This document shows, piece by piece, positions 29,113 through 50,984 of a DNA stretch of 64,000 nt. Within the stretch, counting starts at the first letter, position 1, and each line of letters begins with the position of its first letter. The notes under the pieces are model-generated. The model was given only the letters and a program-made list of their open reading frames with translations. It did not search any database and was not told where the DNA came from. The translations under genes and the position numbers were made by a program. The stretch is from a virus: IMG/VR virus record IMGVR_UViG_3300045999_007505. The stretch is one strand, 5' to 3'.

Positions 29113-29690
29113 TGAAACGTTTCCATTATTTGTTGCCAGCTTAATGGTCTAGTAAGTTCTTCACGGTTTGCATCTAAAAATTCATAAGTAGGCTGTACAT
29201 CTAACTTGTGACCTATTTGATTTCCGCGGCGGACGTATCCAGCATATGATGGCAATATTGCGTGCATCTCTAAATTCGTACGTTTCCCTAATTCTGCAAA
29301 CGCTTCCCAAGCATTATGGCAATATGTAGCACTAAGTAAAAATGGTTGATCTGGATTAATATCGTCCATTATAATAGTTCCATTTTCATTTAGTCGTTGC
29401 AATGCGTTTTCAAAATCTCTTAATACTTGATCCTTTTCATGTGATGCATCAATAAAGATAATATCCCACGTTTTATCATTCCCAACAGTCTCAAAAAATT
29501 CATCCGTTGTCATGCAATGTGTTGGAGAACATGCTGCATTGATGTCTACTCCTTCTTTAATAGCACAATTGATATGATTAAATGTATTACTAGAATCTCG
29601 CACCCCGAGCTCTAAATAACTTTGATAATTAAACCGTTTTACGAAAAATTCAATAATTTCTCGATATGGAACTTGATATGGATTACTCAT
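29109..29690 (-). CDS. class I SAM-dependent methyltransferase (Methyltransf_24-like)
   Basis: YLELGV, GVD, DIIFIDASH, GTIIMDD. Confidence 0.88.
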   Translation of the reverse strand: MSNPYQVPYREIIEFFVKRFNYQSYLELGVRDSSNTFNHINCAIKEGVDINAACSPTHCMTTDEFFETVGNDKTWDIIFIDASHEKDQVLRDFENALQRLNENGTIIMDDINPDQPFLLSATYCHNAWEAFAELGKRTNLEMHAILPSYAGYVRRGNQIGHKLDVQPTYEFLDANREELTRPLSWQQIMETFQ

Positions 29691-31036: not shown

Positions 31037-31809
31037 TACTTTTTAATAACTAATAGCCAATTGTTATTACTATGTGTCTTAGGATATTCCGGGTATTCTT
31101 CAATTGTATTAAAATATGGTTTTAACTTTTCTAATAGAAATTCTTTTCTAGAATCCCATATATTCATTAAAAAATAACCATTATTACAATATCGTATTAC
31201 AGATTCTATATAATTTAAAATACCAGTTTCATCAAACTCACTTAAACACCAATTTGAAATAACCAAATCATATGTATTAGTTGGAATTACATTGCTATCA
31301 TAAAAATTAACATTTTCATATTCAAATGCTGATAGATATTTTTTACATAAATTTAAAGTAGGTAACACATCTATCATTGAATATGATTTTACACTATGAT
31401 CTAGAATTATTTTTGCTTGTCCGCCGTATCCCGATCCAATTTCAACTATATCAAAATTTGATATATCACCAAAATGATTCTTTAAACTTTGTAGTATATT
31501 AAGAAAATACAAAGTACCTGGAGATATATTTCCTGTTAATGGATAATCATATAGATTTGGACTACCATAAATATCGTTAGTTTTATATGTTGATATCTTA
31601 TCTAATATATCTAAGTCTGTTTCTAAATTTTTGTATAAAATATTTGAAATTTCCCGAGATAACACATCATTGCCAATTACTTGTCGGAATATATGATTTT
31701 GTTTAAATTTATTAAATAATTCTGGTGAGTCTACTATCTTAATACATTCATATAAAAATGTATTTCCAATTGATTCTAATGGTAACCAAGTTCCTGTAAA
31801 TTGTTTCAT
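31036..31809 (-). CDS. putative sugar O-methyltransferase
   Basis: IVEIGSGYGG, DLVISNWCLSE. Confidence 0.8.
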   Translation of the reverse strand: MKQFTGTWLPLESIGNTFLYECIKIVDSPELFNKFKQNHIFRQVIGNDVLSREISNILYKNLETDLDILDKISTYKTNDIYGSPNLYDYPLTGNISPGTLYFLNILQSLKNHFGDISNFDIVEIGSGYGGQAKIILDHSVKSYSMIDVLPTLNLCKKYLSAFEYENVNFYDSNVIPTNTYDLVISNWCLSEFDETGILNYIESVIRYCNNGYFLMNIWDSRKEFLLEKLKPYFNTIEEYPEYPKTHSNNNWLLVIKK

Positions 31810-31816
31810 ATATATC

Positions 31817-32677
31817 CTATATTATCGTAATAATTTCGTCAATTGTAAAATATTCTACTTCGTTTGAATATGGACCTTCTTCTAACACCTTTTCGTGCAT
31901 ATTTTCTCCAGGTTGCAATCCGATAATTTTAACAGAAATATGTTGCCCGTTGCTATATTTTTGAATCATTGCTTGTAATAAATCATCTATACGCATTGAT
32001 TTCATCGATGGGCAATATGGAGATGAATCAGTTGAATTATTCATGCAATCAATAATAAGTTGAATTGCATCATCAACGGACCAAAAGAATCTTGTTGCAT
32101 CTGGTGCAGTAACGATAACTTCTTTACCTGCAGTAATCAAATCTTTCCATTTGCAAAGTACTGATCCCGTTGAATATAAAACATTTCCATAGCGTACGGT
32201 ACGATACATTACATTAGGATTAAGTTCTTCATATTGTTTAATTGCACGTTCCATTAAAAATTTTGTAGCACCATATACGCCAGCTACTTGTGCAGCTTTA
32301 TCAGTCGATACCGATAATACAAATTTTAATGTGTCATGATTTAATGAATGTTCTAAAATATTCAATGAACCTATTACATTGGTTTTAATGTTTTCTCTAA
32401 CAAATTTTTCTGCTAAGCCTACATGTTTAGATGCTGCTAAATGAAATACACCAGTAACATTTTGCATTGCTTGTCGTACCTCAAATGAATCAGAAATGTC
32501 ACCTGTATATATTTCAACAGCTGGATATTTTTCTTTTAGTTCTATTAATTTTCCTTCGTCTCTACTAATTACTCGGACTAATCCGCCTTGTTGTAAAATA
32601 TATTTTACTAATGGTTGTCCTAAAAATCCAGAGCCACCCGTTACTAAATATAATTTTTTATTTTCAATTGTTATCAT
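31817..32677 (-). CDS. UDP-GlcNAc 4,6-dehydratase family protein (PseB/FnlA/CapD-like)
   Basis: TGGSGFLG, SRDEGK, FHLAASKHV, STDKA, YGATK, RYGNV, TRFF, GLQPGE. Confidence 0.9.
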   Translation of the reverse strand: MITIENKKLYLVTGGSGFLGQPLVKYILQQGGLVRVISRDEGKLIELKEKYPAVEIYTGDISDSFEVRQAMQNVTGVFHLAASKHVGLAEKFVRENIKTNVIGSLNILEHSLNHDTLKFVLSVSTDKAAQVAGVYGATKFLMERAIKQYEELNPNVMYRTVRYGNVLYSTGSVLCKWKDLITAGKEVIVTAPDATRFFWSVDDAIQLIIDCMNNSTDSSPYCPSMKSMRIDDLLQAMIQKYSNGQHISVKIIGLQPGENMHEKVLEEGPYSNEVEYFTIDEIITII

Positions 32678-32679
32678 GT

Positions 32680-33306
32680 TTATCCTAGTTTTGAATATAA
32701 GTTATTTTGTTTTATTTGTTTTTCAATTGTTTTTGGATGATATAATGAATAATCTTCTTCTATTGGTAACGTTGCATATTTCGTAAAACCTTGTAATACT
32801 TCATGCACTTTATTTTTCCAAGTAATGGTATCGTCATTGCGATAAATCCTCCATTGATAATCTGGCCAATTGATCCACCCATGATCATTGACATTCCAAC
32901 CCCATTGTTGCATGTGATCTTGATCTATACCTTCCACAGTATTTACTCTAGGTACTAGCATAACATCTACTGTAGAATTAGTTTCTAATATATTTGGTAG
33001 TTGTTCTATTAAAGTTTTATTTGGTATTTCGTCTGCATCAATTTGAAAAATGTAATCTCCAAAACAATATGATGATAATTTGTTTTTCCAATCTGCAAAA
33101 TGTCCTTCAAACTCACCTTTATGCCAAGAAAATTCTCCGTTAATAGAATTAGCCCGCAAAAATGATTCTATTTCAAAGTCTCCATTCTTTGCATCATATA
33201 AAACAACAATATTATCCTGTATTCTTTTATTTTCTAATAAGAATCTTATTAATCGTTGAATTTCTATAAATTCATTACAAACAGTAATGGCATAAGTTAT
33301 TTTCAT
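32680..33306 (-). CDS. glycosyltransferase family 2
   Basis: ITVCNE, FQIDADE, PDYQWRIY...VHE. Confidence 0.85.
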   Translation of the reverse strand: MKITYAITVCNEFIEIQRLIRFLLENKRIQDNIVVLYDAKNGDFEIESFLRANSINGEFSWHKGEFEGHFADWKNKLSSYCFGDYIFQIDADEIPNKTLIEQLPNILETNSTVDVMLVPRVNTVEGIDQDHMQQWGWNVNDHGWINWPDYQWRIYRNDDTITWKNKVHEVLQGFTKYATLPIEEDYSLYHPKTIEKQIKQNNLYSKLG

Positions 33307-34541
33307 GAGTTAATTTTTTCTAATTTTGGTAACTTTAATTCTACAGCTTTTGGTATTTTATTAATATCAATATCGGCAATATTTAATACTTTTTCATATG
33401 CTGAAAAAACAGCTGTTTTAGTAAATGTTGTATTAGCAAAGTAACGTTGTCGTTTAGCTAATTCTAACCATTTTTTATAATTTTTTTCAACCTCTTTAAA
33501 CATTTTGCCAGCATATGTATAATCCGGTGTAAACCATTTTGCATCTGCAATTAAAAATTCATTTTGGGCAGATGGATGAATTTCGGTTAATCCGCCCGGC
33601 AATGCACAAATAAATTCTTTTTTAAGAAAATCTGATTGTCCTGAGTAATGTGGTGCGATAATTGGTTTACCAGTAGTTGCAAATTCTAATAATGGTCGAC
33701 CATATCCTTCTGCTTTAGTAAATGATACCATAGCTTTTACTTTAGAATGGTTGTAAAGCAAATTCATTTCTTCATCTGCTAAATCGCCGTGCAGCAAATA
33801 TACATTAGGTAATTTTGCATTATCAAATAAGTCTCGAATTTGATTGATTTTTGATTCAATTTCAATTCGATCCATCACTGAATACGTTGCGCCGCTTGTT
33901 TTTAAAACAAGTGCAGGTGCATCTTTTTGATTCTTATATGTATTAAAAAAACAATGCAACAATCCGCTAATATTTTTTCTGTCTTCGCCCATTTGTCCTT
34001 GCAACCAATGTCCTACTGATAAAAATGCAAATGATTCTGTAATTTGATCTAAGATCGATAATTGACCTTCTATATTATTGTTAAAAATAGTTTCATCAAA
34101 ATATTCTGGTATTACTTCAATTTGAGTTGTTATAATTTTATTATGTTTTTTTGCAGAATTTTCAAATACCTGTTTTGTAAAGTTGCTAGGAACAATTATC
34201 AAATGCATCGTATTTAATTTGTCAATCCAATCTGCGGGACAAATATCACCTTCAGTTCCCGCAGTCACTCCGATATTATATTTACCGACAGCTTGAAATT
34301 CATTTGGCACCGTAATCTGAACCCAAATATCTGGCTGATATGTTATTGGCATCGGAATAATTCGCTGATTCCAATCTTGCGGTATTGGATATGTAAATGG
34401 AGTATGTCCCCATGGCAATGAAAGCAATTTAATATCCCATTCGTTGCCTCGTTGTTCTATAAAATTTGTAATTATCTCTCGAGCATGATGACCATACCCC
34501 GATTGTGTTGCTACTGGTGACGCTATAACTACTGTTCGCAT
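33303..34541 (-). CDS. glycosyltransferase family 4
   Basis: SGYG, DRKNI, EGYGRPLLE...GKPIIA. Confidence 0.88.
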   Translation of the reverse strand: MRTVVIASPVATQSGYGHHAREIITNFIEQRGNEWDIKLLSLPWGHTPFTYPIPQDWNQRIIPMPITYQPDIWVQITVPNEFQAVGKYNIGVTAGTEGDICPADWIDKLNTMHLIIVPSNFTKQVFENSAKKHNKIITTQIEVIPEYFDETIFNNNIEGQLSILDQITESFAFLSVGHWLQGQMGEDRKNISGLLHCFFNTYKNQKDAPALVLKTSGATYSVMDRIEIESKINQIRDLFDNAKLPNVYLLHGDLADEEMNLLYNHSKVKAMVSFTKAEGYGRPLLEFATTGKPIIAPHYSGQSDFLKKEFICALPGGLTEIHPSAQNEFLIADAKWFTPDYTYAGKMFKEVEKNYKKWLELAKRQRYFANTTFTKTAVFSAYEKVLNIADIDINKIPKAVELKLPKLEKINS

Positions 34542-36025
34542 ACTATTCCTGTTTTTTCGTATTGTTTTGGTGTAACTTTATTTAATGTATATCGAGGACG
34601 AGACATTTGTTTTGCAACAAACATATAATCAATCATTTCAATCATTTTTTCGCCCATTTGGTGTGCCGTTAGACCATTCTCCATTGCCCATTGTCTACCC
34701 GCTAGACCCCGCGTACCTCTTTCTAATTTAGACATATTATACCAATAACGAATTGCAGCTGCCACATCTTCATATTTACATCTATCGTCAAAAATATATG
34801 GTGTAGCTGGCGAGCCTTGCAAGCTTCTGTTACTTGGAAATACTGGTTTTACCCAAGATCCATGTATTTTGTATTTTCCTGTGTGATTAGTTGCAAAATC
34901 GCCATTGAATCTAATCCATTCGCCATTTTCATCCGTAAACCCACATTGGTCTTGCAATCCGCCCGTAACATTATTAATAATTGGAGTACCTGATAATATA
35001 GCTTCGGTTGAACTAAGTCCCCAACCTTCATTAGATCCAATATTAACTACAACATCAGCTACATTATATAATGCATTTAAATCTTGCGGCGTAAGTTTTT
35101 GTTCAGAAAATATTATTTTACAGTCTGGAGCTAAGGTTTTATATACAGCTCGTAAATCTGTACCATTTTCATCAACAACTTGAGTATGCATTAGCAATGC
35201 AACACGTTGTTTTTGTTCTTCTGGTAACCCATCAACAAATGTTTTGAATGCTAATATAACATCGCCTGGTTGTTTTCGTCTAATATTTCGATTATTCCAA
35301 AATACTACAAAATCTACATCATTTTTAGTTTTGATGTTGTCATACATTTGTTTGTATGCCGGATTGGTAGATTCTAATGGTTTAAATGTATTATGATTCA
35401 AGCCGTGAGGAACAAACCCGGTAATAACTTGATTCCAATTTATATCTTGGGGCAATGAATCGCCATCATCATAATTTACAATATCAAATCCATTTTGCGT
35501 AAGAACTTCGCGATGAATATTATCAGATTGTTTGCTAATACCCATAATTAAATCGCAACTTGCATAATACGGAGCATTCCACATTGGATAAGGTAAATCA
35601 TCCCAAATTGAATAATAAACTATGGGAATATTGTATGTTGTTTTAATTTCATGTTCAATAGCATACAACCATGTCCAATATCTAGGATCGGTAAAATGAA
35701 ATATTGCATCGGGCCGTTCTTGATTAATTAATGCAAACAATATGTTGCGATCGCCATATCCTGACCATGGAATTATTTTTACCGATGCATCTTCAATGCC
35801 CGTTTCTTGTGCAACATGTTGTGATAAATCAACTCCGCGACCATGTTCAGGATGTTGTAATGCTGCACCTAATTGTATCCAATCATAATGATGTACGGTG
35901 TTAAAAATAATTTCTCGGCTAATTGTTCCGATGCCAGATGGCAATCGAAAATCGTCTGCTAACAATAAAATTTTCTTTTTCTTGGGCTTGTTAGGGTCGA
36001 TCTTTTTTAATTTTGGTAACTGCAT
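34529..36025 (-). CDS. glycosyltransferase family 4
   Basis: SGIG, NRNIRRK, EGWGLSSTEA...GTPII...TGGL. Confidence 0.9.
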   Translation of the reverse strand: MQLPKLKKIDPNKPKKKKILLLADDFRLPSGIGTISREIIFNTVHHYDWIQLGAALQHPEHGRGVDLSQHVAQETGIEDASVKIIPWSGYGDRNILFALINQERPDAIFHFTDPRYWTWLYAIEHEIKTTYNIPIVYYSIWDDLPYPMWNAPYYASCDLIMGISKQSDNIHREVLTQNGFDIVNYDDGDSLPQDINWNQVITGFVPHGLNHNTFKPLESTNPAYKQMYDNIKTKNDVDFVVFWNNRNIRRKQPGDVILAFKTFVDGLPEEQKQRVALLMHTQVVDENGTDLRAVYKTLAPDCKIIFSEQKLTPQDLNALYNVADVVVNIGSNEGWGLSSTEAILSGTPIINNVTGGLQDQCGFTDENGEWIRFNGDFATNHTGKYKIHGSWVKPVFPSNRSLQGSPATPYIFDDRCKYEDVAAAIRYWYNMSKLERGTRGLAGRQWAMENGLTAHQMGEKMIEMIDYMFVAKQMSRPRYTLNKVTPKQYEKTGIVCEQ

Positions 36026-40106: not shown

Positions 40107-40817
40107 TTAATTCTGTAACATTACTAACCAATAGGTTGATTCAAAATCTGCACCTGTAAATGCAATTCGAGCTAAACCATCTGGAGATACTTTCAATTCT
40201 CCGCTATCTCCGCGATTTGCTACTAATACTTCTTTTAATTTGTCTGCTGAGAAACAAACCGGATCCATTGAATCTAATGCGGTTGGACCTACTTCAAATG
40301 AAATATTATCTGCATTAACTGTGGTATAATTGATAATGAATTTAACTTGTCCATTAACAACTTGCACTGCAAAGTTTTTAGCATCTGGTAAGGCATTTTT
40401 TGCTTTGATAAATTTGCTAACAAATTCGTCATTAACCGGAATAGTAACTTCATAATTTGGTTCTGCATTGATTGATGGTACCGCAGGAATAACTGTCGTG
40501 TCAGCTAACATAAAAGTTGCCTGTGTGCTACCTTCTGAAATTTTCATTGCATAATTCTTACCAGCTGCATCTTTAACATCGATTGTGATATTTTCACCTA
40601 ATGCTCCTAGCATTTTTATTAATGCACCGGTATGATTAATGCCTAACATGCCCGTCATAAATGGTGATGTATTCCATTTGATTTTACCTACGACGGTTTG
40701 ATCCATATCGATCAATTCGCACCCAATTGAATCTGTTTGTTCTTTTAAAATAACCGCTTCGCAATTTCCTGCTAAATAATAACGATTAATGAACGATTGT
40801 AACTTGCTTTTTTCCAT
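40107..40817 (-). CDS. DNA sliding clamp (gp45/PCNA-like)
   Basis: 236 aa two-domain beta-rich pattern, C-terminal STYWLV; close to the clamp loader. Confidence 0.75.
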   Translation of the reverse strand: MEKSKLQSFINRYYLAGNCEAVILKEQTDSIGCELIDMDQTVVGKIKWNTSPFMTGMLGINHTGALIKMLGALGENITIDVKDAAGKNYAMKISEGSTQATFMLADTTVIPAVPSINAEPNYEVTIPVNDEFVSKFIKAKNALPDAKNFAVQVVNGQVKFIINYTTVNADNISFEVGPTALDSMDPVCFSADKLKEVLVANRGDSGELKVSPDGLARIAFTGADFESTYWLVMLQN

Positions 40818-40830: not shown

Positions 40831-42090
40831 TTAAAATGTAAAGAATTTATTAAAATTTTCCGCATCAGTGGTTGATATACTACTACCACCGAATTTTTTA
40901 TATGTTTTGATGTATTTTTCATATACTTGAGGAGCTGAGTCTGGATCAGCAAACATTTCATGTAAAGATAAAATTACATCATATAAGTCTCTTGGTATCA
41001 CCGTTTCTAACAATTCAACGTGACTATCAACCATTTGATTGATTTCATTTGCTGCTTGTACATACAAATGCGTATTGTGAACTACCATTCTTGGCATTGC
41101 TTCTTGCGAATAACGATCCAATCCGGCATCTGTCTTACCACCTAAATATTCATATGTAAAATCCGTACAAGCTGGACATCCCATAGAACAAGGAACGTGT
41201 TGAGTTAAATCGATTGCAACCTCTCCGGTTTTTCCTTGCTTGATATGCGACTTTCTTCGATATTCGGCATTCTTTGGAAAATACAATTCAGAAAATGTTT
41301 GTGACTTGTAATTCGTTGAATGAAGATATGTTCCAAATACTGGATATTGTCCTGGAGATGAAGAATCCGTTGTAATATAAATTCTATTATCTGTTAATTC
41401 ATTCATCAACTTTTGCAATGTAGCCAAAATAAAGAAATCTGAAATTTTACTAATGCCAAGTAAGTGAACATACTCTAATCGTTTATTTTCAAATTCTCGC
41501 TCTTTAAGCATCAAAGAAACCGCAAACATGAAATCAACTAATTTCTGCGGACCTCCAATCGCCCAACCTTGAAAATCAAAATGCTTAAATTTGTGATACC
41601 ACCAAGTATACTCATCTGCATTTGAACCTTGCAACATGTTTAAGAATTTTGTCTTGCCGCTTTGATGTTTTTCAAACCAAGCAAAATTGTCAAAACTAAT
41701 GTCAGCACATAGTGCAAATTGATTTTTATATTTTGTTTTAGGCGGAATATCTAAGTTAGCTGCAACATCGCTGTTTGCTTCTAACCAATGAAAAATCTTT
41801 TCTCGTAATTCATTGCTATACGGTAATGCACCAGTTGCAATCTGATAACCACCTGAGTCACCAAATACTAGCACATCTTTTTCTAATCCTAGCTGATCGC
41901 GGAAATCCATTTTCTTGTAATGATGCCCTGCCGTAACCAGAAAGTATGGATGTCTCCAATCTGCAGGATATCTAGAATCAAAGAATTTTACCGGATCGCC
42001 GCTTGTAAATTTCATATCTTTCTTGAATGCAGATACCATGCTGCCTGCAGACAAAGATGGAAAGTATATGAATCTTTTATTTTCGCTCAT
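40831..42090 (-). CDS. dpdA: DpdA/TGT-family 7-deazaguanine transglycosylase
   Basis: DSGGYQ, LDIPP, GWAIGG, HLLG, TDSSS and zinc site CSMGCPAC...HN; folE/queD/queE nearby. DNA rather than tRNA substrate is inferred from context. Confidence 0.82.
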   Translation of the reverse strand: MSENKRFIYFPSLSAGSMVSAFKKDMKFTSGDPVKFFDSRYPADWRHPYFLVTAGHHYKKMDFRDQLGLEKDVLVFGDSGGYQIATGALPYSNELREKIFHWLEANSDVAANLDIPPKTKYKNQFALCADISFDNFAWFEKHQSGKTKFLNMLQGSNADEYTWWYHKFKHFDFQGWAIGGPQKLVDFMFAVSLMLKEREFENKRLEYVHLLGISKISDFFILATLQKLMNELTDNRIYITTDSSSPGQYPVFGTYLHSTNYKSQTFSELYFPKNAEYRRKSHIKQGKTGEVAIDLTQHVPCSMGCPACTDFTYEYLGGKTDAGLDRYSQEAMPRMVVHNTHLYVQAANEINQMVDSHVELLETVIPRDLYDVILSLHEMFADPDSAPQVYEKYIKTYKKFGGSSISTTDAENFNKFFTF

Positions 42091-43105
42091 TGTAGTCCTT
42101 TAAAGTATTAATTAATTTAGTTGCTGAAAAAAAGTTATTATGTAGTTTTATTGCTAATTGTGCAACATGTTCTGATAAATCTTGTTGTTCGTATTCCAAA
42201 ATTGCCTTAACCGCAGAATCAACGCTGTCTGCTCGTTTAAACATCGGATCATACATTTCCGTATATGATAATCTATTTGGAACTATAGGGCATGCTCCAG
42301 CACAAGCTGATTCATACATCGAAATACCCAATGTTTCTTGATCTGCAAATGAAACTGCAAATCGCGCACGTTGAAGCAATTCATGATATTCTTGTTTATT
42401 TAAATTCATTTCCATTGCAACACAAAATTGATAATGTTTCAATTCGGGACGAGCTGCCAATTCTTGAAATAAATCTAAACGCTTTTCTGGTGCAATGCGA
42501 TGCGGAAATACAATGATGTTTTCTTTTTGTGACCAAAGACGCGGTGCAATCATATCATAGGTATATTCCATTGGCCAACCCGTTTTATCAAATGATCGGT
42601 TACGTGAAACATAATATGTTTTACTTATTAATTTATAATGTGCTACAGTTGCAATCCAATTATGATCATATGCTGCAATCATTGCTTGCTCAGCGTGTCT
42701 AATCCATGGTTTATCTCCTACGAGACGACCTAAAAAGTCATTTGGGTCATATGAACCCGCGTGCCAAAGTCCGTGCGTTACAACAGGAATATTTAAAAGC
42801 TCACTCATGTATTTTACATTGATAATACCCGGATGCCAAGCATCTGTAAAAATAATGTGATCGCCTGGTTGTATATGTCCGTGAGTGAATAATTCAGCTA
42901 ACTTATGAACTTGAGTTGATTTATACATATTGGTGCCGCCAAAATTCAAAAAGGCACCGGGAGTTGCAGCTTCTGGAATTGTTAAATCTCCTTCTACTAC
43001 AACTACTTCAAATCCTGCATCTTCCAATAGTTTTGGTACATGAGTCTTCCATTCGCAAGTATAACGAGTTGGTACCGATTCTATGTCTACTAAAAATATT
43101 TTCAC
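42077..43105 (-). CDS. GT-B glycosyltransferase in the deazaguanine operon
   Basis: FPHRIAPEK, QETLGISMYE...GACPIVP..LSY; GTG at 43105 overlaps the upstream TGA (track start 43141). Confidence 0.82.
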   Translation of the reverse strand: MKIFLVDIESVPTRYTCEWKTHVPKLLEDAGFEVVVVEGDLTIPEAATPGAFLNFGGTNMYKSTQVHKLAELFTHGHIQPGDHIIFTDAWHPGIINVKYMSELLNIPVVTHGLWHAGSYDPNDFLGRLVGDKPWIRHAEQAMIAAYDHNWIATVAHYKLISKTYYVSRNRSFDKTGWPMEYTYDMIAPRLWSQKENIIVFPHRIAPEKRLDLFQELAARPELKHYQFCVAMEMNLNKQEYHELLQRARFAVSFADQETLGISMYESACAGACPIVPNRLSYTEMYDPMFKRADSVDSAVKAILEYEQQDLSEHVAQLAIKLHNNFFSATKLINTLKDYNERK

Positions 43106-43461
43106 GATTTTGATCTTTTTATGATTGCACCATTTTCCCAATCTTCCCAGACTTCTACTTTATAAAGAGATGGGAATTGTTCTAATAACCATTCTCCAAT
43201 TGCTTCGCATGACATCGAACCAAACTCTAATACATTAACCGTTTCATCCGTAAAGCCAATTCGAAGTTCTTTTTGAATTGCACGATTCAATAAAATAAAT
43301 TCTTCATCTCGATCGGTATGCGTTACTCGTGCATAACAACGGAATCCAAACATATGTCGATGGCGTTCTGATAAAAATGCTACTTCTGGAAAAATGTCTT
43401 TTGCGTCGGGCCAACAATGGAACCCTTCAATACTAAATGTTACTACTACGCTGTACTTCAT
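43102..43461 (-). CDS. QueD-like T-fold protein (DpdL-like)
   Basis: EGFH.W, LSERHRHMF (LxxxHRHxF), SCE...VEVWED.ENGA; second QueD paralogue in the window. Confidence 0.75.
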   Translation of the reverse strand: MKYSVVVTFSIEGFHCWPDAKDIFPEVAFLSERHRHMFGFRCYARVTHTDRDEEFILLNRAIQKELRIGFTDETVNVLEFGSMSCEAIGEWLLEQFPSLYKVEVWEDWENGAIIKRSKS

Positions 43462-43864
43462 CTGCTATTAATTTTTTATATTTAGTTGTTGACCAACCAT
43501 GGTCTCTGCTTAAGTATTGAATTGGAAGATCTAAATCATCGCCGGTAAATGACTTACCAATATAATCATCGCCCAAATAACGAACATATTCAGCGGATTT
43601 GTTTTCAGCAAACCGCTTTAATTTATAATGCAATTCCGATTCCAATGTATATGGAATAACATGATTAACGTGTCGCAATGCAATCAACATTGATGTTCGA
43701 TCTTTAACTGAAAGAATGGGTTTCATTTTTTCGGGGCGTTCAATGGTTGGATCGGTTTGAAGCAATACCCATACCTGATCGCATTCGTCCTCCATTTGTT
43801 CAAACATTTCAATGTAGCCTGGATGCAATACATCAAAACTACCAGCAATAAGTCCTATCTTCAT
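43433..43864 (-). CDS. cytidylyltransferase (TagD/HIGH family)
   Basis: AGSFDVLHPGY, KPIL..DR, GDDY, RDHGWSTT. Confidence 0.85.
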   Translation of the reverse strand: MKIGLIAGSFDVLHPGYIEMFEQMEDECDQVWVLLQTDPTIERPEKMKPILSVKDRTSMLIALRHVNHVIPYTLESELHYKLKRFAENKSAEYVRYLGDDYIGKSFTGDDLDLPIQYLSRDHGWSTTKYKKLIADEVQRSSNI

Positions 43865-44283
43865 TGTCTATCAAATTTATAGTCATCTGGAGTAACATGT
43901 TGCATATTGTGCACGGTTGTACAATACAACGAATAATCTGCATATACAACTTTGATGCTGTCTGTTTTCTTTAACAATGCTGCATCTTCACAATCCAACA
44001 TCAATAAAACGTGTGCTCGAATTCTAATCATCGGCGGAATATGTTTTAGCATACCTGGAGTAACTTCTATGGTAACAAATGTAGTATCCGTTATCATATC
44101 AAATATTGAACTCCACGCTTTACGATCAACTAATTGCTGTGTTGCAGGCGAACAAATATAAATGTGCGCGCAAGGAGTTAATTTTTCATATGTTGCTTTC
44201 ATATCCGCAATGAATAGCGTTTCAATATCGGTAAATCGTCCTTCAACTTCTTTACCATACCAATGTGTCTTATAACCAATCAT
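43861..44283 (-). CDS. hypothetical protein, first gene of the deazaguanine operon
   Basis: 140 aa; GKEVEG...TLFI N-terminal motif; ATGA-coupled to the cytidylyltransferase. Confidence 0.75.
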   Translation of the reverse strand: MIGYKTHWYGKEVEGRFTDIETLFIADMKATYEKLTPCAHIYICSPATQQLVDRKAWSSIFDMITDTTFVTIEVTPGMLKHIPPMIRIRAHVLLMLDCEDAALLKKTDSIKVVYADYSLYCTTVHNMQHVTPDDYKFDRQ

Positions 44284-44288
44284 ACCTT

Positions 44289-44317
44289 ATTATAATAAAT
44301 TTATTCTTATTTTCCAA
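44289..44317 (-). promoter_or_regulatory. sigma70-like promoter TTGGAA-N17-TATAAT
   Basis: Matches the recurrent boxes; heads the deazaguanine/clamp operon. Confidence 0.7.
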
Positions 44318-44330: not shown

Positions 44331-44361
44331 AAAAAAGTGCTAATATTTCTACTAGCACTTT
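44331..44361 (-). terminator. intrinsic terminator
   Basis: AAAGTGCTAGTA-GAAA-TATTAGCACTTT hairpin running into a T tract. Confidence 0.8.
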
Positions 44362-44366: not shown

Positions 44367-44807
44367 TTAATATTCATTATTTGGCTGAACGTCAAAATGA
44401 TGATTTTTTAAACTTCGTGATACTAATTCTGGATCAATATCTTTTAATTTATTACGAATAATTCGTTTTAATTCCATATTACCAATATCAGTCGTATTGA
44501 TAGTTATAACATTTGATGATGTATCTATATTAATAGCCTTAGGTTGATTTTCATCTACATGAATAGTATATATCGTTTTACCAGTAAATATACCAGGATG
44601 ATCTACTATTATATCAACAGCATTATTTTGTTCTAAATTTCTTTGTATACTATGATTTATATAATTCAATCCGAAATATCCACCAATGCTGGCCAATGTT
44701 AAACTCAATCCCATTGCTAATTCTTTAGCTGAAATTTCATTTAATTCATTTGATAAATTTTTAGTACCAAATCGACGCATATTTTCTGCTAGTATATGTT
44801 TCTTCAC
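44367..44807 (-). CDS. single-TM hypothetical protein (ILAENMRRFGTKNL leader)
   Basis: GTG start with AGGA RBS; own late motif (44824-44831) and terminator. Confidence 0.7.
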   Translation of the reverse strand: MKKHILAENMRRFGTKNLSNELNEISAKELAMGLSLTLASIGGYFGLNYINHSIQRNLEQNNAVDIIVDHPGIFTGKTIYTIHVDENQPKAINIDTSSNVITINTTDIGNMELKRIIRNKLKDIDPELVSRSLKNHHFDVQPNNEY

Positions 44808-44846
44808 AGTTTATCCTATTTTATATAAATATACTAAGAAAAAAAA

Positions 44847-47366
44847 TCATTTTCCGAAACTAAAAAACTTTGCTACTGAATTATTTTCTGGAAATGCTCC
44901 CCAATTCATTGCTGCATAGAAATCATCCAATTTGTTTTTCAATTCCTTTTCAAAGATTTTATTGCGATCTATGTATTGGGTAACAAATTCTTCAATTTCT
45001 TTTGGATCTTGATATCCTCGCAATGCCATTGTATCAAATCCATATGGATTATCTGATAAGTATGCCCATTTTACCTTTTCGCCGTTTTGAATAGGTTGAA
45101 TATCTCGAATTTTGTGCATTGTCAATAAATCATTGAAATTGATTGCTGACTTAACATGTGCCGGTGTACCTGACATATATCCTGTAAATGGTTTGCGACC
45201 TTTTATGAATTTTGATATTTCCTTGACACCTGAATTCTTCATTACATTGAGTACTGGCGATTTCTTAAGGTTGTTTTTAAATTCATGAATCATATCCGTT
45301 GTGGCAGTCTTATCTCGTTCTTTAAGAATGTGCCACAATGTTTCTTTCATGATTTTTTTGAAATCTTCTGGAAATGATGATCTAACAACATCCAATCCTT
45401 TGATATCTAATTTATCCGTAGGTTTGCCTTCTTTGAAAATTACCCATTGTGCATAACGTTTCTTTGCAATCCATAAACCAGATTTAGCAACATATTCTTG
45501 TTTGATTTGCCAACGATGTGATGCGGTATTGTGAAACACTTCAGCATACCGATCATACATTTTATTTACCAATGCTTGTACTTCTGATGCAATTGCATTG
45601 GTTTGGTCAATCATAAATTGTTCGTCTGATTCATCATATCCAGGAAAACGTTTTGCAATAAGTGGCAAGCTAGATACAAATGTTGAATCTGTATCTGTAT
45701 AAAAAGCAAATTCTGCTTTGCCATTGGTTGCATTAACAAAATGATCTTGTCCTGTTTCTTTTGCATAATGATTGTTAATTACCTTTGCTGAAAATTTGAT
45801 TACTGCTTGTCCTGTTGCTGTAATTGCACCTGCATTATCTAAATCGTGAAAGCGAAACGTTTTAAGTCCTAATACTCCATAAAATGAATTGAGCAATACT
45901 TTTTGTGTTAACTGCATTGCATCATAAAATTTATATTCTTCTGACCCTACTTCGTATTCATCTCGTTTGTCTTTAAATTCAACACGTTCATTAAACCATT
46001 TTTCTAGAATGGTTGGTAAGAAGCCTCTTCGGTCATTTGTGTAAACTGTACCATTACTTGCAACTGTATAATTATTATCGGATAACCATGCTTTAACGTG
46101 TGGAACATGAGTACCATTTTGTAATGTTATTTGTTGTGGGTCTGATTTCAATAAGCATTCTTGGTCCCAATTTTGAATTACTCCCAATTTGGTTTCTGGA
46201 GAAATATTCAGACTCATAATGATGCTTGGATAAAGCGACGTTAAATCTAAGTCATAGATCCATTTGTATAATCCTGGTATTGGGTCTTTTACATATGCTC
46301 CAGCAAGTGCATCTGCTTCTGTTTCTTCTTCAACAAATCTAAATTGTTTGTTAGGAGCAACTAATCCATTGCGTTTCAAATCTACAATTGCAGCGCCATC
46401 CAAATATTTAGATGCATAATATACATCTTCATATGGAACGTGACCTTTATGGCATATGGTTCTTGCAAGTGCAATCAATTGCAGTTTATCATCCATTTCA
46501 TAAATAAGATCAACGTCGGTTACGTTATATTCTACAAATTTGTAAATGTCGTCTGTAAACAATTGATCCAAATCTCCTTCGTATTCAACCTTACCCCTAC
46601 CCAATTCCTTTTTAGCAACCGTGTCTAATCGATAATTTGGTAATTCAGTATATGTAAACTTTTTATACAATGTCAAATAATCTAAACTAGATACGCCAAA
46701 TATTTTATATCGACCTCTATTTTTATTCCATTCAACGATTCCTGCAGGAGATAATTTTTTAATTGCTTGTGCACCTAATACTTTTTTGATGCGATTGATA
46801 AGATACGGAATATCGAAATTATCTGTATTCCATCCTGTAATTACTGTGGGTTGTATTTCTGCAAATGCATTGATAAAACGCATTAACATGTTTGCTTCTG
46901 AATCAAATATTTCTACCTGATATTTATTAGTAGCAAATGAATCGTGTTTCACTCTTCTTTCTTCATCTAACAGCAAAACTTGCATGGTACGCCCAGCTTT
47001 ATCATAATATGCAATGGACGTTATTCGCGAACGAGCTTCTTCAGGAGTCGAATACCCATCTTCGTCCCGCTCTACTTCGATATCAAAGAAAAAGTCTCTA
47101 TGCCCTTTCGAAACTAAATCGCTTTCGTAATAAAGGTCGATGAGCGTACGCATTTCTTCATTTAAATCAGATTCATATGCAGTTGAATTATCTTTCCAAT
47201 TGCCATCAACCCGAGACAATTTAACGCCGTCTAATGATTGAAATTGCCCTGCCTCATCTGGCAAATATGCATATGGTTTGAATGGGAACTTTTGATGCCC
47301 TAATTCATCATCCCATACGTGCATGATGCCAGTTTTTTTGTCGTAACCTATTGCTTGGTATGCCAT
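44847..47366 (-). CDS. family B DNA polymerase (T4 gp43-like)
   Basis: Exonuclease DIE, GWN..FD, YN..D; polymerase DLTSLYPS, KVLLNSFYG, YTDTDS, KKRY. Confidence 0.97.
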   Translation of the reverse strand: MAYQAIGYDKKTGIMHVWDDELGHQKFPFKPYAYLPDEAGQFQSLDGVKLSRVDGNWKDNSTAYESDLNEEMRTLIDLYYESDLVSKGHRDFFFDIEVERDEDGYSTPEEARSRITSIAYYDKAGRTMQVLLLDEERRVKHDSFATNKYQVEIFDSEANMLMRFINAFAEIQPTVITGWNTDNFDIPYLINRIKKVLGAQAIKKLSPAGIVEWNKNRGRYKIFGVSSLDYLTLYKKFTYTELPNYRLDTVAKKELGRGKVEYEGDLDQLFTDDIYKFVEYNVTDVDLIYEMDDKLQLIALARTICHKGHVPYEDVYYASKYLDGAAIVDLKRNGLVAPNKQFRFVEEETEADALAGAYVKDPIPGLYKWIYDLDLTSLYPSIIMSLNISPETKLGVIQNWDQECLLKSDPQQITLQNGTHVPHVKAWLSDNNYTVASNGTVYTNDRRGFLPTILEKWFNERVEFKDKRDEYEVGSEEYKFYDAMQLTQKVLLNSFYGVLGLKTFRFHDLDNAGAITATGQAVIKFSAKVINNHYAKETGQDHFVNATNGKAEFAFYTDTDSTFVSSLPLIAKRFPGYDESDEQFMIDQTNAIASEVQALVNKMYDRYAEVFHNTASHRWQIKQEYVAKSGLWIAKKRYAQWVIFKEGKPTDKLDIKGLDVVRSSFPEDFKKIMKETLWHILKERDKTATTDMIHEFKNNLKKSPVLNVMKNSGVKEISKFIKGRKPFTGYMSGTPAHVKSAINFNDLLTMHKIRDIQPIQNGEKVKWAYLSDNPYGFDTMALRGYQDPKEIEEFVTQYIDRNKIFEKELKNKLDDFYAAMNWGAFPENNSVAKFFSFGK

Positions 47367-47875
47367 TAATTAACCTTGTATATATCTTGTAATTCTCTAT
47401 TTAAACCTAAATCATCATCTAATCCGTATCCAACTACCCATTCATCTCCTAATTCAAATCCACAATAGTTAGTTAAATCAACTCCACCTTTTCTTTTCAA
47501 TAGAGTAACAACCTTAGCTGTTTCTGGAATATGACTGTTTACCATGAACAACATTTCCATGATGCTTGTTCCAGAATCGCAAATGTCATCTACAATGTAA
47601 ACGCGCTTGCCTTTTAAATCTAATTCCAATGTTTTAGTAATCAATACGCCGCCCGAATTGTCTCGTTTGTCATATGATTTTAATCTTACAAAATCAACTT
47701 CATGATTGATAGTCATTGCACGACTTAAATCTGAAAAGAAATGTATTGCTCCGTTAAGAACACAAATTAATACTGGAGGTAACGTTGCTTCTGATTCTTT
47801 GTGATCTTGTGAAATTGCATCTGCTAATTCTTTGATGCGTTGTTGTATTTGTTGTTGTGTTATGATTTTTTCCAT
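47366..47875 (-). CDS. hpt: hypoxanthine-guanine phosphoribosyltransferase
   Basis: CVLNGA.HF.SDL, IVDDICDSGTS PRPP loop, VVGYGLD. Confidence 0.92.
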   Translation of the reverse strand: MEKIITQQQIQQRIKELADAISQDHKESEATLPPVLICVLNGAIHFFSDLSRAMTINHEVDFVRLKSYDKRDNSGGVLITKTLELDLKGKRVYIVDDICDSGTSIMEMLFMVNSHIPETAKVVTLLKRKGGVDLTNYCGFELGDEWVVGYGLDDDLGLNRELQDIYKVN

Positions 47876-48081
47876 AATCTATAAATTCCGTAAACATTGA
47901 TTGCGATTATAACTAAACTTAAAACTAGATGACTGTAATTGTTAATGAAAAAATCATAAGTAATCCAACCAGTATCTCCAACGATCCATGTAATCATTGC
48001 GGCTTTTGTCCAGCCTCTTGCATTTGAAACGTATCCAGCTAATACCAAAGCTGTACTAATCCATCCTAAAATTTCTATCAT
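47860..48081 (-). CDS. small three-TM membrane protein
   Basis: 73-aa hydrophobic ORF (ILGWISTALVL...NVYGIYRLW). Confidence 0.7.
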   Translation of the reverse strand: MIEILGWISTALVLAGYVSNARGWTKAAMITWIVGDTGWITYDFFINNYSHLVLSLVIIAINVYGIYRLWKKS

Positions 48082-48374
48082 TATTGTTTGATTAAAGCAA
48101 TTTCAGATTCTCTAACCAAATGATATTTTTCTCCAGCAATTGAAACTTCTTTATGATCTCCAATTTGGTTGGAATGAATCATAACTTCATTGCCTTCTTT
48201 AACCGACATTGGAATTCTATCTCCAGTTTGCGTAAAAAGACCTGGACCTGTTTTAACAACATCTGCATAACGATAATCGTCTGTTCCTGTCATAATGATA
48301 ATACCGCTTTGCGTTTTATCTGTTTTTTCTTGTAGCTTTAATAAAACCTGATCTCCTGTTGGTAACCAATTCAT
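48081..48374 (-). CDS. groES: co-chaperonin GroES
   Basis: PTGDQVL, KTQSGIII mobile loop, VVKTGPG, MSVKEG, LVRESEI. Confidence 0.92.
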   Translation of the reverse strand: MNWLPTGDQVLLKLQEKTDKTQSGIIIMTGTDDYRYADVVKTGPGLFTQTGDRIPMSVKEGNEVMIHSNQIGDHKEVSIAGEKYHLVRESEIALIKQ

Positions 48375-48634: not shown

Positions 48635-48690
48635 TTTATCTCGTATATAATTTTAACGTCGCCAAACGTTGTTGTTGTTGTCCAATTCAT
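48631..48690 (-). CDS. 19-aa mini-ORF bridging queE and thioredoxin
   Basis: MNWTTTTTFGDVKIIYEIK*; ATG overlaps the queE TAA and TGA overlaps the thioredoxin ATG. Confidence 0.5.
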   Translation of the reverse strand: MNWTTTTTFGDVKIIYEIK

Positions 48691-49475
48691 TATACTCCTC
48701 GTTTAGTGTCAAATGCAATAATATGGTCTCTGCCTGTCATATTATATCCTTTTTCTGCACACATATCAAATACCACAGGATACATTTTTATTAATTCTTC
48801 TCGGGTATCTCCTGCAGGCATAATAAAAGTCTTGTTTTTTGGAATATTAAGTAATACTCTAAATTCTTCAATTTCTTCTAAATTATATGCAGTGCCATCC
48901 CATACTGGTTTGTAATGATAATCAGAATGAAATGCAATCATTTGTTTGATTGCTTCGTGATTGAGACGAAATTTATTATGTTGCGCCACCATTTTCTCAT
49001 CCGTAATTGTCCCTTGCGGCGTAGCAACACCCACAACGGGAACACTGTTACTAAACTTAGGACTAAGACTAACCAACCCAATAGGGTAATCAGTGGCAAC
49101 AAAATGGGAGCCTTCGGTTTCAATCGTGATAAGAATGTTTCTTTCATGGGCAAAATGCGTTAATTCATTTACCAAAGCCGGATGCATTGTCGGTGCACCT
49201 CCAGTTAACATCATTTCTTTAATGTGTGGATTTTCATCGTATATCTTTATGATATCATTAAATGTAAATGTGCCTTTTTCTGGATGTATACTCGTGTACC
49301 AAGAATCGCACCAACCGCCTTCACCGAAAAAGCATCTATGCGTACAACCCGTAGTTCGTACTGCTATTGTAGGTCTGCCAAATCGAGAGCCTTCACTTTG
49401 CACACATCGGTACAATTCTACTATAGGCAATGTTTTTGTGTAATCTGTTATTCTTTTAGAAGGGGAGGTCGTCAT
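48690..49475 (-). CDS. queE: 7-carboxy-7-deazaguanine synthase (radical SAM)
   Basis: VQSEG...GRP, RTTGCTHRC...WCDS, LTGG, IETEG, SLSPK; ATG 49475 or 49487 likely (track start 49502). Confidence 0.92.
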   Translation of the reverse strand: MTTSPSKRITDYTKTLPIVELYRCVQSEGSRFGRPTIAVRTTGCTHRCFFGEGGWCDSWYTSIHPEKGTFTFNDIIKIYDENPHIKEMMLTGGAPTMHPALVNELTHFAHERNILITIETEGSHFVATDYPIGLVSLSPKFSNSVPVVGVATPQGTITDEKMVAQHNKFRLNHEAIKQMIAFHSDYHYKPVWDGTAYNLEEIEEFRVLLNIPKNKTFIMPAGDTREELIKMYPVVFDMCAEKGYNMTGRDHIIAFDTKRGV

Positions 49476-49854
49476 CGTGGTACTCATTACTATTGGTAAC
49501 ATTTGTTTCTAATTTATTTAATAAAATTTCAAATTTAGATTCTAAATCTTCAAGTCGACGATATATTTCTATTAACGCAGATCGTCTTACAATTGGTGTT
49601 AAATCCATTTCTGGTTTAGTTGCAAAGAAGTCATCCAAAAATGATACAGGATATAATTGCACTTGACTGTATTCTGGTTTTTGAGCTTCTTTTGGTAACA
49701 CTCGCCATTTAATCTCAATGCCTTGTTTAATGGCTTCAGCTGTTACTTCTCGGCCGATGTTGCTACCTCCAGAACCTTTGCCTAAATATTCAAAAAGCGA
49801 TATATAAGTTTCGTCATTATTCTTCATAGCTTGCTGAGTTTCGTTCGTGTTCAT
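49456..49854 (-). CDS. hypothetical protein between queD and queE
   Basis: 132-aa ORF; SLFEYLG...LYPVSFLD; C-terminal DDDLPF. Confidence 0.7.
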   Translation of the reverse strand: MNTNETQQAMKNNDETYISLFEYLGKGSGGSNIGREVTAEAIKQGIEIKWRVLPKEAQKPEYSQVQLYPVSFLDDFFATKPEMDLTPIVRRSALIEIYRRLEDLESKFEILLNKLETNVTNSNEYHDDDLPF

Positions 49855-50281
49855 ATACTTCTACTTTTATTGCTTTTACTCTACCGGTTGTTTCTACTGC
49901 TAAAAAATCATTTATTGTATGGTATAAGAATTCTGCAAATCGTTCGCATCCTGTGGCCGGTAAGATTCGCAATCGTATAATACCTTCTACATTCATTTGT
50001 TTAAACAAAGTTAAATGCGGATCATCTTCAGCTATGATTGTAGTGTGGTCTAAAAGGTATGTAAAATAGTCTTTTGGAGACATACCTTCAATTTGGGTTT
50101 TAGCACGTTTCATACCACCAAAATCCCAAACCCAATTACGATGATCTAGATCACCTTCAAACCATACTCGGAATGATACAGCATATCCATGTAAAAATCT
50201 ACAATGTGTACCTGCTGCTCGCCATTGCCGGAAACAAGTTGAATATCCATCAAATAATTTAGTTGACTTAAATGTTGCCAT
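49817..50281 (-). CDS. queD: 6-carboxy-5,6,7,8-tetrahydropterin synthase
   Basis: HCRFLHGY, VWDFG, LDH, GCERFA, VEVYE...NSA. Confidence 0.92.
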   Translation of the reverse strand: MATFKSTKLFDGYSTCFRQWRAAGTHCRFLHGYAVSFRVWFEGDLDHRNWVWDFGGMKRAKTQIEGMSPKDYFTYLLDHTTIIAEDDPHLTLFKQMNVEGIIRLRILPATGCERFAEFLYHTINDFLAVETTGRVKAIKVEVYEHERNSASYEE

Positions 50282-50282
50282 A

Positions 50283-50984
50283 TTAATTATAACCTTTTAC
50301 GAATTGATAAAATTCTGATCTTGCATTGCCATCATCCAAAAATGCTCCAGATAATTTTGCAGTCTTCATTGAAGCACCGCCATGTTTAACTCCACGACAT
50401 TGTACACAATTATGTGTTGCTTCAATCATAACCGCTACACCTTTATTGTCTGTAATGAGTTCATTTATTGCATGATGTATTGCTACTGTTAATTGTTCTT
50501 GTATTGCACCTCGTCTACCAAAATGCTCTACTACTCGATTCAATTTACTTAAACCGATAACATTGCTATTCTCACCTGGAATATATGCAACATGTACATT
50601 GCCCATTATAGTCTGATGATGATGTGAGCACATTGAAGTTAATGGAATACCTCCTTCGAATACAATGCCATCATATCCATCACTAGGAAATGCTGTGATT
50701 CCTGACATTGGATTGTATCGACCAGCCCATAAGTCATTAACATATGCCTTTGCAACTCGCCTAGGAGTATCAGATGAATTTGGATCTTGTTCCCAAGCTA
50801 CTCCCAATGCACGAAGGAATTCTCCATAATAAAATGCAGCATCATCGATGATTGCTTGTTTTTCTTCTCGAGTTAATTCAGCATCAGGTCCTTCGATTGC
50901 CTGTTTAGTTGCTAATTGCGTGGAAATGCCGTTAGCAAAACCAGATTTAACCAATTCTAAATTGTTTCTTTGTTCTTTTGTCAT
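50283..50984 (-). CDS. folE: GTP cyclohydrolase I
   Basis: DTPRRVAK, SMCSHH, GLSKLNR, QEQLT, HNCVQCRGV. Confidence 0.96.
   Translation of the reverse strand: MTKEQRNNLELVKSGFANGISTQLATKQAIEGPDAELTREEKQAIIDDAAFYYGEFLRALGVAWEQDPNSSDTPRRVAKAYVNDLWAGRYNPMSGITAFPSDGYDGIVFEGGIPLTSMCSHHHQTIMGNVHVAYIPGENSNVIGLSKLNRVVEHFGRRGAIQEQLTVAIHHAINELITDNKGVAVMIEATHNCVQCRGVKHGGASMKTAKLSGAFLDDGNARSEFYQFVKGYN

Follow-up and report, generated by a model that had tools for sequence, protein, structure and literature searches.

The closest described counterpart of the genes considered here is the DpdL/DpdA3 system of the Cellulophaga phage phiST, which consists of FolE, QueD, QueE, MazG, DpdL, CGPG_00066, and DpdA3, and which yields DNA with 100% 2′-deoxy-7-deazaguanosine (dDG) (PMC10516641). 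In that study CGPG_00067, a QueD paralogue with the motif LxxxHRHxF, was named DpdL and proposed to be the decarboxylase of 7-carboxy-7-deazaguanine (CDG); the activity was not demonstrated; dpdL and dpdA of Acidovorax phage ACP17, expressed in E. coli without the glycosyltransferase, yielded no dDG, and the authors suggested that further enzymes are needed (Cui, Hutinet et al., Nucleic Acids Research 2023, PMC10516641). Pseudomonas phage PA5oct was listed by Iyer and colleagues with a deazaguanine synthesis and incorporation system (PMC7824862), and its DNA resists enzymes at several G-containing sites and is cut by nucleases that sense modified G (PMC12191111). Here we analyze a 64,000-nucleotide stretch of DNA of a phage from lake water (IMG/VR record IMGVR_UViG_3300045999_007505, hereafter the window), in which an operon of five overlapping genes encodes, among others, a DpdL homologue, a glycosyltransferase, and a long enzyme of the tRNA-guanine transglycosylase (TGT)/DpdA superfamily. 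We put at roughly 45% the probability that this operon supplies the insertion and tailoring steps of a 7-deazaguanine DNA modification pathway that lacks QueC and that the virion DNA contains a glycosylated 7-deazaguanine. To our knowledge, eight natural 7-deazaguanine bases occur in DNA, all with small substituents, and the only sugar-decorated DNA bases are pyrimidines, namely derivatives of 5-hydroxymethylcytosine (hmC), 5-hydroxymethyluracil (hmU), and 5-hydroxycytosine, and base J. In agreement with the earlier note on this DNA, which had placed a sugar-decorated deazaguanine outside the known derivatives, a literature search found no description of a glycosylated 7-deazaguanine in DNA; the same search found DpdL mentioned only in the 2023 paper (PMC10516641).

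The window resembles phiST in that its FolE, QueD, and QueE are 58–65% identical to those of phiST, its DpdL homologue is 41% identical and carries the same motif, QueC is missing, and the cluster adjoins a DNA polymerase gene. It differs in that the DpdA3 of phiST has 259 amino acids (aa) and is only distantly related to the 419-aa TGT-like enzyme of the window, that MazG is present in phiST and absent in the window lineage, and that the slot of the glycosyltransferase is taken in phiST, which has no glycosyltransferase at all, by a P-loop kinase-like protein. The trio of DpdL, transferase, and TGT-like enzyme does recur in ACP17 (gp123, TGT-like; gp124, transferase; gp125, DpdL; then QueE) and in PA5oct and its relatives (gp168, gp167, and gp166), with transferases 39–42% identical to that of the window; both phages have QueE beside the trio, and ACP17 also has QueD and FolE there. 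In these two phages the gene order is inverted and there is no 140-aa gene corresponding to the first gene of the window operon, and the PA5oct TGT has 540 aa and no zinc cysteines. Both have been recorded only as deazaguanine systems, and what is known for PA5oct is a modified G (PMC12191111, PMC7824862). MIJ3 is another cultured phage with the trio, and in the phage Phosso DpdL adjoins the transferase.

The new result is an association of DpdL, the transferase, and the long TGT that recurs in hundreds of phage contigs as well as in cultured phages and bacterial islands and holds over transferase identities from 98% down to 22%. Four independent samplings agree on this. When 80 IMG/VR loci were collected with the TGT as the seed (80–99% identity), the three genes were adjacent wherever a locus extended far enough upstream. 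With the transferase as the seed, 50 further loci at ∼50% identity had DpdL directly upstream in 48 cases, a TGT-like gene 3–6 kb upstream wherever the flank allows, and FolE downstream. Seeding with DpdL gave 79 loci, 52 of which hold both the transferase and the long TGT. The remainder comprise 4 with only the transferase (for the most part with short flanks), 16 with a short phiST-type DpdA3 and no transferase, 6 with neither, and 1 with the long TGT but without the transferase; none of the 79 combines the transferase with a phiST-type DpdA3. The transferase starts between −49 and +5 nt from the DpdL stop in about two-thirds of these loci. In bacterial genomes and contigs of metagenome-assembled genomes (MAGs), the transferase again neighbors a long TGT, and about half of these loci also have DpdL; the chromosomes concerned include those of Pelagibacterium, Devosia, Ochrobactrum, Shimia, Sulfitobacter, Aurantimonas, and Magnetospirillum. 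These results support the assignment of the glycosyltransferase to the deazaguanine gene set.

The transferase family has at least 8000 members in metagenomes. An AlphaFold 2 model of the window protein, folded with an alignment of 47 sequences, has a mean predicted local distance difference test (pLDDT) score of 92.3 and a predicted TM score of 0.89, and shows the two Rossmann-like domains of a GT-B fold. Foldseek matched it to BshA (E 4e-11), glycogen synthase, and tetrahydrobiopterin glucosyltransferase (BGluT), with E values from 1e-9 to 4e-11, and VIA gave Z scores of 21–26 against sucrose-phosphate synthase, BshA, MshA, and BGluT, the best being sucrose-phosphate synthase 6kih (Z 26.2, root-mean-square deviation 3.1, 318 residues), with BshA at ∼25 and MshA and BGluT at ∼23. 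The residues H202-R203-x3-E207-K208 and E257-x7-E265 are invariant in the 47 sequences; we take the EX7E motif and the Arg/Lys pair to be the motifs by which GT4 enzymes bind a nucleoside diphosphate (NDP)-sugar. The N-terminal acceptor domain has invariant residues of its own (TRYT, GAFLNF, TDAW, and WHAGSYD). The small-molecule GT4 enzymes match over 300–320 residues and share the EX7E and R/K motifs, whereas their identity to the window protein is 10–15%, and the latter sits in a deazaguanine and DNA replication context and not in thiol or sugar metabolism. The window protein itself falls just below the Pfam cutoff for Glycos_transf_1 (25.6 bits against 26.4), and some homologues carry PF00534; it is 40% identical to PA5oct gp167 and has a TM score of 0.90 to ACP17 gp124. 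The family is acidic, with a median isoelectric point of 5.3. The T4 α- and β-glucosyltransferases (AGT/BGT) are not among the best 50 structural matches, and a cyanophage protein named DNA α-GT ranks 40 in the viral library. The T4 system is similar to the locus described here in that a GT-B enzyme is encoded among replication genes; it differs in that its enzymes act on the hydroxymethyl group of a pyrimidine already in DNA, and no hydroxymethylase is found in the window lineage.

A second transferase subfamily of ∼390 aa, 22% identical to the ∼342-aa type of the window, fills the same slot between DpdL and TGT (L166:10393-11553, with similar open reading frames (ORFs) in L159, L162-L172, L175, L183, L195, L217, and L225), and its carriers include close relatives of the window phage. 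Such interchangeable, divergent subfamilies recall the diversification of sugars among the T-even phages. No fused form of the transferase was found among proteins longer than 650 aa, and no DpdL-glycosyltransferase fusion in the loci examined.

The DpdL homologue aligns with phiST CGPG_00067 at 41% identity over 98% of its length (E 4e-15), and LxxxHRHxF is present exactly, as L30-S-E-R-H34-R35-H36-M-F38, in place of the CxxxHGH of QueD. FolE, QueD, QueE, and a TGT/DpdA-type gene are encoded alongside, without QueC. The family is further marked by invariant H15, H48, S84-C85-E86, and E106-D107, and the window protein matches no Pfam family; phmmer searches of the PDB with the 119-aa DpdL homologue and the 419-aa TGT gave nothing useful. 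The loss of the catalytic Cys of QueD from DpdL was stressed previously (PMC10516641). We observe that the DpdL family has a different conserved Cys, which lies in the invariant S-C-E motif (C85 in the window protein).

The family of the TGT-like enzyme is large, with 582 close homologues, and at E ≤ 0.001 it comprises 768 representative clusters. Across 42 diverse homologues the catalytic motifs D78-S-G-G-Y-Q, D114, and D242-S-S-S-P (within TDSSSP) and the zinc site C301-x3-C305-x2-C308...H338-N339 are invariant or nearly so. The family profile aligns the Asp motifs with DSGSFQ and FDSVFP of solved archaeal and bacterial TGTs (PDB, E 3.5e-5), and the zinc site with C-x-C-x2-C...H-N of ArcTGT 1iq8. 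The window protein has no Pfam hit, and relatives that are 73–84% identical carry precomputed PF01702 annotations. Homology to PA5oct gp168 is clear (E 5e-38), and ACP17 gp123 is a more distant relative. The relation to phiST-type DpdA3 is seen only at the level of profiles: hhalign of the two family profiles gives a probability of 78% (E 2e-5), as against 3.6% for the window family profile with the single phiST DpdA3 sequence, and BLAST finds no match between phiST DpdA3 and the window TGT. In the DpdL-seeded loci the two families never occur together. We read the window enzyme as a member of a separate long subfamily that it appears to share with PA5oct gp168 and that would lie outside the phiST-type DpdA3.

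Several observations bear on whether this enzyme acts on DNA or tRNA. Its C-terminus, ...ENFNKFFTF, resembles that of the family B DNA polymerase (PolB) of the window, ...AKFFSFGK, and among the minus-strand ORFs of at least 60 aa in the window an FFxF ending occurs in these two proteins only. In lineages where the PolB tail reads ...NSLFEF, several TGTs end in ...NLFE, ...SLFEF, or ...NLFEL. The tails of the two proteins thus change together across lineages, which supports DNA rather than tRNA as the target. Polymerases of the T4 family bind the sliding clamp through their C-terminal tail, and the TGT of the window is probably tethered to the clamp by its polymerase-like tail. Taken together, the tails, the neighboring clamp gene, and the restriction data for PA5oct favor DNA as the likely substrate.

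The upstream genes suggest where the pathway ends. FolE, QueD, and QueE lie 4–7 kb upstream of the operon, and together with a hypoxanthine-guanine phosphoribosyltransferase (HGPRT)-like gene they occupy the stretch 3–7 kb upstream; reading away from polB, the order is the HGPRT-like gene, thioredoxin, GroES, QueE, a 132-aa protein of no assigned family, QueD, and FolE. The HGPRT-like gene adjoins polB in relatives too, and a class II ribonucleotide reductase gene is located near the cluster. No QueC was found among the scanned ORFs of the window; two relatives of 159.6 and 158.3 kb, both complete with terminal repeats, also lack it, and the TGT of one of them is 98% identical to that of the window. 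Because QueC is absent, the pathway should end at CDG, as in phiST. MazG-type dGTP clearance was not found in three relatives, two of them complete. The complete relatives have a single ThyA-family gene, which scores 314.6 bits against TIGR03284 and is a true thymidylate synthase; therefore there would be no hydroxymethyl-pyrimidine for a transferase to decorate.

The earlier note had named the GT-B and DpdA/TGT-like enzymes and had identified the LxxxHRHxF protein as DpdL, the proposed CDG decarboxylase; all these identities hold up, the first on the model, its structural matches, and the intact donor motifs, the second on both catalytic Asp residues, the zinc site, and the family profile, and the third on the published description and the match to phiST. 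Co-occurrence of the glycosyltransferase with dpdA-type genes across phages, which the note had named as a check, is seen in the samplings above. Its overall interpretation survives in the gene identities and in the place of the transferase in the deazaguanine set; the pairing of a cytidylyltransferase with the transferase as donor maker, to which we return below, is weakly supported. The features are collected in Table 1.

Table 1. Features of the deazaguanine operon and its surroundings in the window
Feature	Coordinates	Strand	Basis
Sliding clamp	40107-40817	minus	weak match to NF002222, E 4e-4; lies between TGT and clamp-loader genes
Long TGT/DpdA-superfamily enzyme, 419 aa, with polymerase-like C-terminal tail	40831-42090	minus	motifs, family profile
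GT4-type retaining GT-B glycosyltransferase, 342 aa	42077-43105	minus	AlphaFold 2 model, Foldseek, VIA, motifs
DpdL homologue, 119 aa, QueD-paralogous T-fold	43102-43461	minus	match to phiST DpdL, motif
HIGH-family nucleotidyltransferase, 143 aa (TagD/RfaE domain II-like), accessory	43433-43864	minus	PF01467, phrog_7878
140-aa protein	43861-44283	minus	no family or PDB match
Sigma-70-like promoter candidate TTGGAA-17-TATAAT	44289-44317	minus	consensus match; 6 nt upstream of first ATG
Terminator-like hairpin ending the preceding, nonconserved 146-aa unit	44334-44361	minus	pattern scan
Family B DNA polymerase (PolB)	44847-47366	minus	phrog_262, E 2e-185; tail matches TGT tail
HGPRT-like phosphoribosyltransferase, coupled to polB	47366-47875	minus	TIGR01203, E 1e-38, 132.8 bits against cutoff of 150
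QueE-like radical SAM enzyme (CDG synthase)	48690-49502	minus	TIGR03365, E 2e-14; 64% identical to phiST QueE
QueD (PTPS-I)	49817-50281	minus	PF01242, E 4.5e-14; 58% identical to phiST QueD
FolE, GTP cyclohydrolase I	50283-50984	minus	PF01227, E 1e-44; 65% identical to phiST FolE

The gene content can be arranged into a pathway. FolE, QueD, and QueE would turn GTP into CDG, as expected from their families, and DpdL would act on CDG and, in line with the proposal for phiST, probably decarboxylate it to 7-deazaguanine. The GT4-type transferase, whose gene overlaps that of DpdL and is translationally coupled to it, would move a sugar from an NDP-sugar onto the deazaguanine. This step is more likely to take place on the free base or a precursor before insertion than on the base already in DNA. 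Three points favor the free base or precursor: the acidity of the transferase family, the small acceptors of its closest structures, and the strict pairing of the transferase with a distinct and longer type of TGT, which is as expected if the TGT must accept a bulkier base. The 419-aa TGT, with its conserved exchange residues and its tail, would swap guanine in phage DNA for the deazaguanine, and the HGPRT-like enzyme would probably return the released guanine to GMP and then GTP. The nucleotidyltransferase would be an optional helper and the 140-aa protein a lineage-specific partner. In a more specific version, which we hold a little more tentatively than the general proposal, DpdL and the GT4 enzyme make a sugar-bearing 7-deazaguanine on the free base, possibly a pyrrole-ring glycoside, a clamp-tethered DpdA installs it at the fork, and interchangeable transferase subfamilies vary the sugar as a counterdefense.

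Several points weigh against a glycosylated base. 7-Deazaguanine has no obvious hydroxyl acceptor for a GT4 enzyme, so that a sugar at N2, O6, or a ring carbon, or a DpdL product other than 7-deazaguanine, would be required. The acidity of the family and the position of the T4 DNA glucosyltransferases outside the best 50 matches disfavor direct action on DNA, and if the sugar is added earlier, the TGT pocket would have to accommodate the sugar-bearing free base. The decarboxylase activity of DpdL is itself unproven. Gene linkage speaks for a shared pathway and does not prove a sugar in DNA, which for every transferase-carrying phage is deduced from sequence and linkage, and the co-occurrence counts take contigs as they come, uncorrected for relatedness.

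The lack of an acceptor hydroxyl and the acidity of the family would also fit a reading in which the DNA carries plain dDG (or its 7-carboxy counterpart, dCDG), as phiST does, and the transferase serves the pathway by a transient glycosyl handle, a pterin byproduct, or a protein partner. phiST reaches 100% dDG with the same FolE/QueD/QueE/DpdL set (PMC10516641), and the nearest structures include BGluT and other small-molecule GT4 enzymes. We nevertheless consider this reading less likely, though the most serious of the competitors, since phiST-type systems arrive at dDG without any transferase, the transferase is strictly paired with a TGT of a different and longer type, which fits a change in the base substrate, and two divergent subfamilies that swap in one slot among close relatives are the pattern to be expected if the decoration is part of an arms race. 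Among the scanned genes of the cluster there was none for a sepiapterin reductase-type step, and a pterin glycoside, suggested by the match to BGluT, was judged unlikely because the transferase always occurs together with QueE and a TGT whose catalytic residues are intact. Alternatively, the modified base could enter through the nucleotide pool before replication, by way of the HGPRT-like enzyme, kinases, the class II ribonucleotide reductase, and then PolB, with the TGT in an auxiliary role or acting on nucleotides. The conserved coupling of the HGPRT-like gene to polB and the nearby reductase gene are in line with such a route, as are the phiST-type loci in which DpdL is fused to a P-loop kinase-like protein with MazG beside it, which hint at nucleotide-level steps in that branch. 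In the relatives of the window phage, however, the MazG-type dGTP clearance that would go with it is missing from all three that were searched, the TGT retains all base-exchange residues together with a clamp-type tail, and the HGPRT-like enzyme is explained equally well by salvage of the released guanine; we regard the nucleotide-pool route as improbable.

The TGT superfamily is mainly tRNA-modifying, and the best PDB matches of the window family profile are tRNA enzymes, so one may ask whether the module is a translation-tuning device that acts on host or phage tRNA. We consider this very improbable, given the C-terminal tail common to the TGT and PolB, the position of the TGT gene between polymerase and clamp genes, the resistance of PA5oct, which has the same trio, to restriction at G sites, and the finding that every characterized phage TGT homologue beside FolE/QueD/QueE modifies DNA (PMC10516641). 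Least credible of all is that the transferase is an ordinary DNA glucosyltransferase for hydroxymethyl-pyrimidines, or a member of a glycan island, that came to lie in the operon by chance. At least eight other glycosyltransferases are encoded at positions 24330–36025 of the window, and GT-B enzymes glucosylate 5-hmC in T-even phages. Against this, the adjacency to DpdL is kept across lineages, including phages and bacteria not seen with such a glycan island, and a hydroxymethyl-pyrimidine acceptor was rejected because the only ThyA homologue of the complete relatives is a true thymidylate synthase.

If glycosylated 7-deazaguanine is indeed present, it would be the first glycosylated purine known in any genome and a new class of DNA base, and it could explain both the failure of ACP17 DpdL and DpdA in E. 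coli and the modified G of PA5oct. The deazaguanine module to which the transferase constantly belongs is very common in phages and also occurs in bacterial islands. The proposal is relevant to the evasion of restriction and CRISPR, to sequencing artifacts, and to enzymes that write bulky groups into DNA.

We next turn to the two remaining genes of the operon. The nucleotidyltransferase belongs to the HIGH family (PF01467, E 2.3e-10, 41.2 bits against a cutoff of 21; phrog_7878, E 3e-29), and to this extent the TagD-like cytidylyltransferase of the earlier note stands; its score against TagD itself (TIGR01518, 47.8 bits) is far under the cutoff of 165.4, and RfaE domain II scores about equally. 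Where the signature HxGH is expected, the window protein reads HPGY; homologues in other lineages read HAGH, and those with this canonical form adjoin deazaguanine genes in L118, L140, L141, L202, L207, L216, and L217. Of 50 loci of close relatives with both the 140-aa gene and DpdL, 31 also encode the nucleotidyltransferase and 19 lack it but keep the other four genes, and a homologue occurs in the phiST-type locus L185, which has no transferase. The nucleotidyltransferase is therefore linked to the pathway without a specific tie to the transferase. A role as the maker of the transferase's donor, as was first suggested, is possible, but the pairing is weak because the gene is optional, its motif is degenerate, and it is present in a locus without a transferase.

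The 140-aa protein has no Pfam, PHROG, NCBIfam, or PDB family match. In the ESM Atlas it found leucine-rich-repeat look-alikes at scores below 0.9, its profile matched only a repeat-like stretch of SHOC-2 in the PDB, and it is not related to phiST CGPG_00066. Residues E12, E14, D19, H40, E73, R89, K105, and D108 are invariant. Co-occurrence of its gene with the dpdA-type gene holds among close relatives, all of which have it inside the deazaguanine cluster where the flank is sufficient, moved in some beside FolE/QueD; it does not extend to ACP17 and PA5oct, and the protein is specific to this phage lineage.

Every gene in this part of the window is on the minus strand. The five overlapping genes that the earlier note had described as running straight into the sliding clamp, dUTPase, and clamp loader genes were all found as ORFs with such overlaps. 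The glycosyltransferase ORF can be read from a TTG at 43141 (42077-43141, 354 aa), and the GTG at 43105 is its probable start because relatives align from residue 13; with that GTG, which overlaps the DpdL stop by 4 nt, the junctions of the operon overlap by 4, 29, 4, and 14 nt. Downstream of the TGT gene the gaps are 13 nt to the clamp, 1 nt to the dUTPase (181 bits), and 1 nt to the clamp loader (phrog_168, E 9e-85). The single promoter proposed for the operon has a candidate in the TTGGAA-17-TATAAT site behind the hairpin; it is backed by its position alone, since promoter-like matches across the region are not above chance (28 seen, 33 expected). A blastn search of the operon against GenBank phages gave no match. 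Between the promoter candidate and polB lies a 146-aa ORF with a hydrophobic segment (44367-44807), which has no counterpart in the related loci compared and is a separate unit. It is preceded on the coding strand by the motif ATATTTATA (44824-44831), which ∼9 short intergenic spacers of the window repeat, and is followed by the hairpin, which runs from 44361 to 44334.

Further observations concern related loci. phiST CGPG_00066 (L001:7320-7799) resembles a P-loop kinase with the Walker A sequence GxxCSGK[DT] and is conserved in phiST-type DpdL loci, and three contigs encode CGPG_00066-DpdL fusions (L179:9992-10930, L181:9980-10885, and L188:8794-9711); other deazaguanine phages are said to lack CGPG_00066 homologues (PMC10516641). 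The kinase-like protein and MazG hint that the phiST branch may work partly at the nucleotide level. On the chromosome of Pelagibacterium mangrovi (L239:4042-10035), a serine recombinase is followed by two genes of no assigned function, a long TGT-like gene, an ORF with a weak, below-cutoff match to the YhhQ/Vut_1 family of deazapurine-precursor transporters (E 1.7e-4), and the glycosyltransferase, with no DpdL, FolE, QueD, or QueE within 9 kb. In L151, a 233-kb phage contig of a second group, a 326-aa ORF near FolE has a below-cutoff match to QueC (17.7 bits, G005:C1:13617-13826) and may be a PP-loop enzyme of another kind. PA5oct gp163 (L002:9160-9594), which adjoins the PA5oct QueE, matches the HGPRT-like family of the window weakly (E 4e-5), and a phosphoribosyltransferase may thus accompany the module in that phage too.

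Elsewhere in the window, GroES is encoded at 48081-48374, and one complete relative also has GroEL (L152:2982-4016). The glycan island at 24330-36025 is a low-GC segment of 11.7 kb with ∼14 glycan-building genes, separate from the deazaguanine operon, and its products include GT2, GT4, and GT25 transferases, a formyltransferase, a PIG-L deacetylase, a methyltransferase, and a Polysacc_synt_2 dehydratase. A 3-kb contig of a Crocinitomicaceae MAG (L228, DORI01000186.1) carries DpdL and a transferase that is 80% identical to that of the window; together with the 58–65% identity of FolE, QueD, and QueE to those of a Cellulophaga phage, this hints at a host among the Flavobacteriales.

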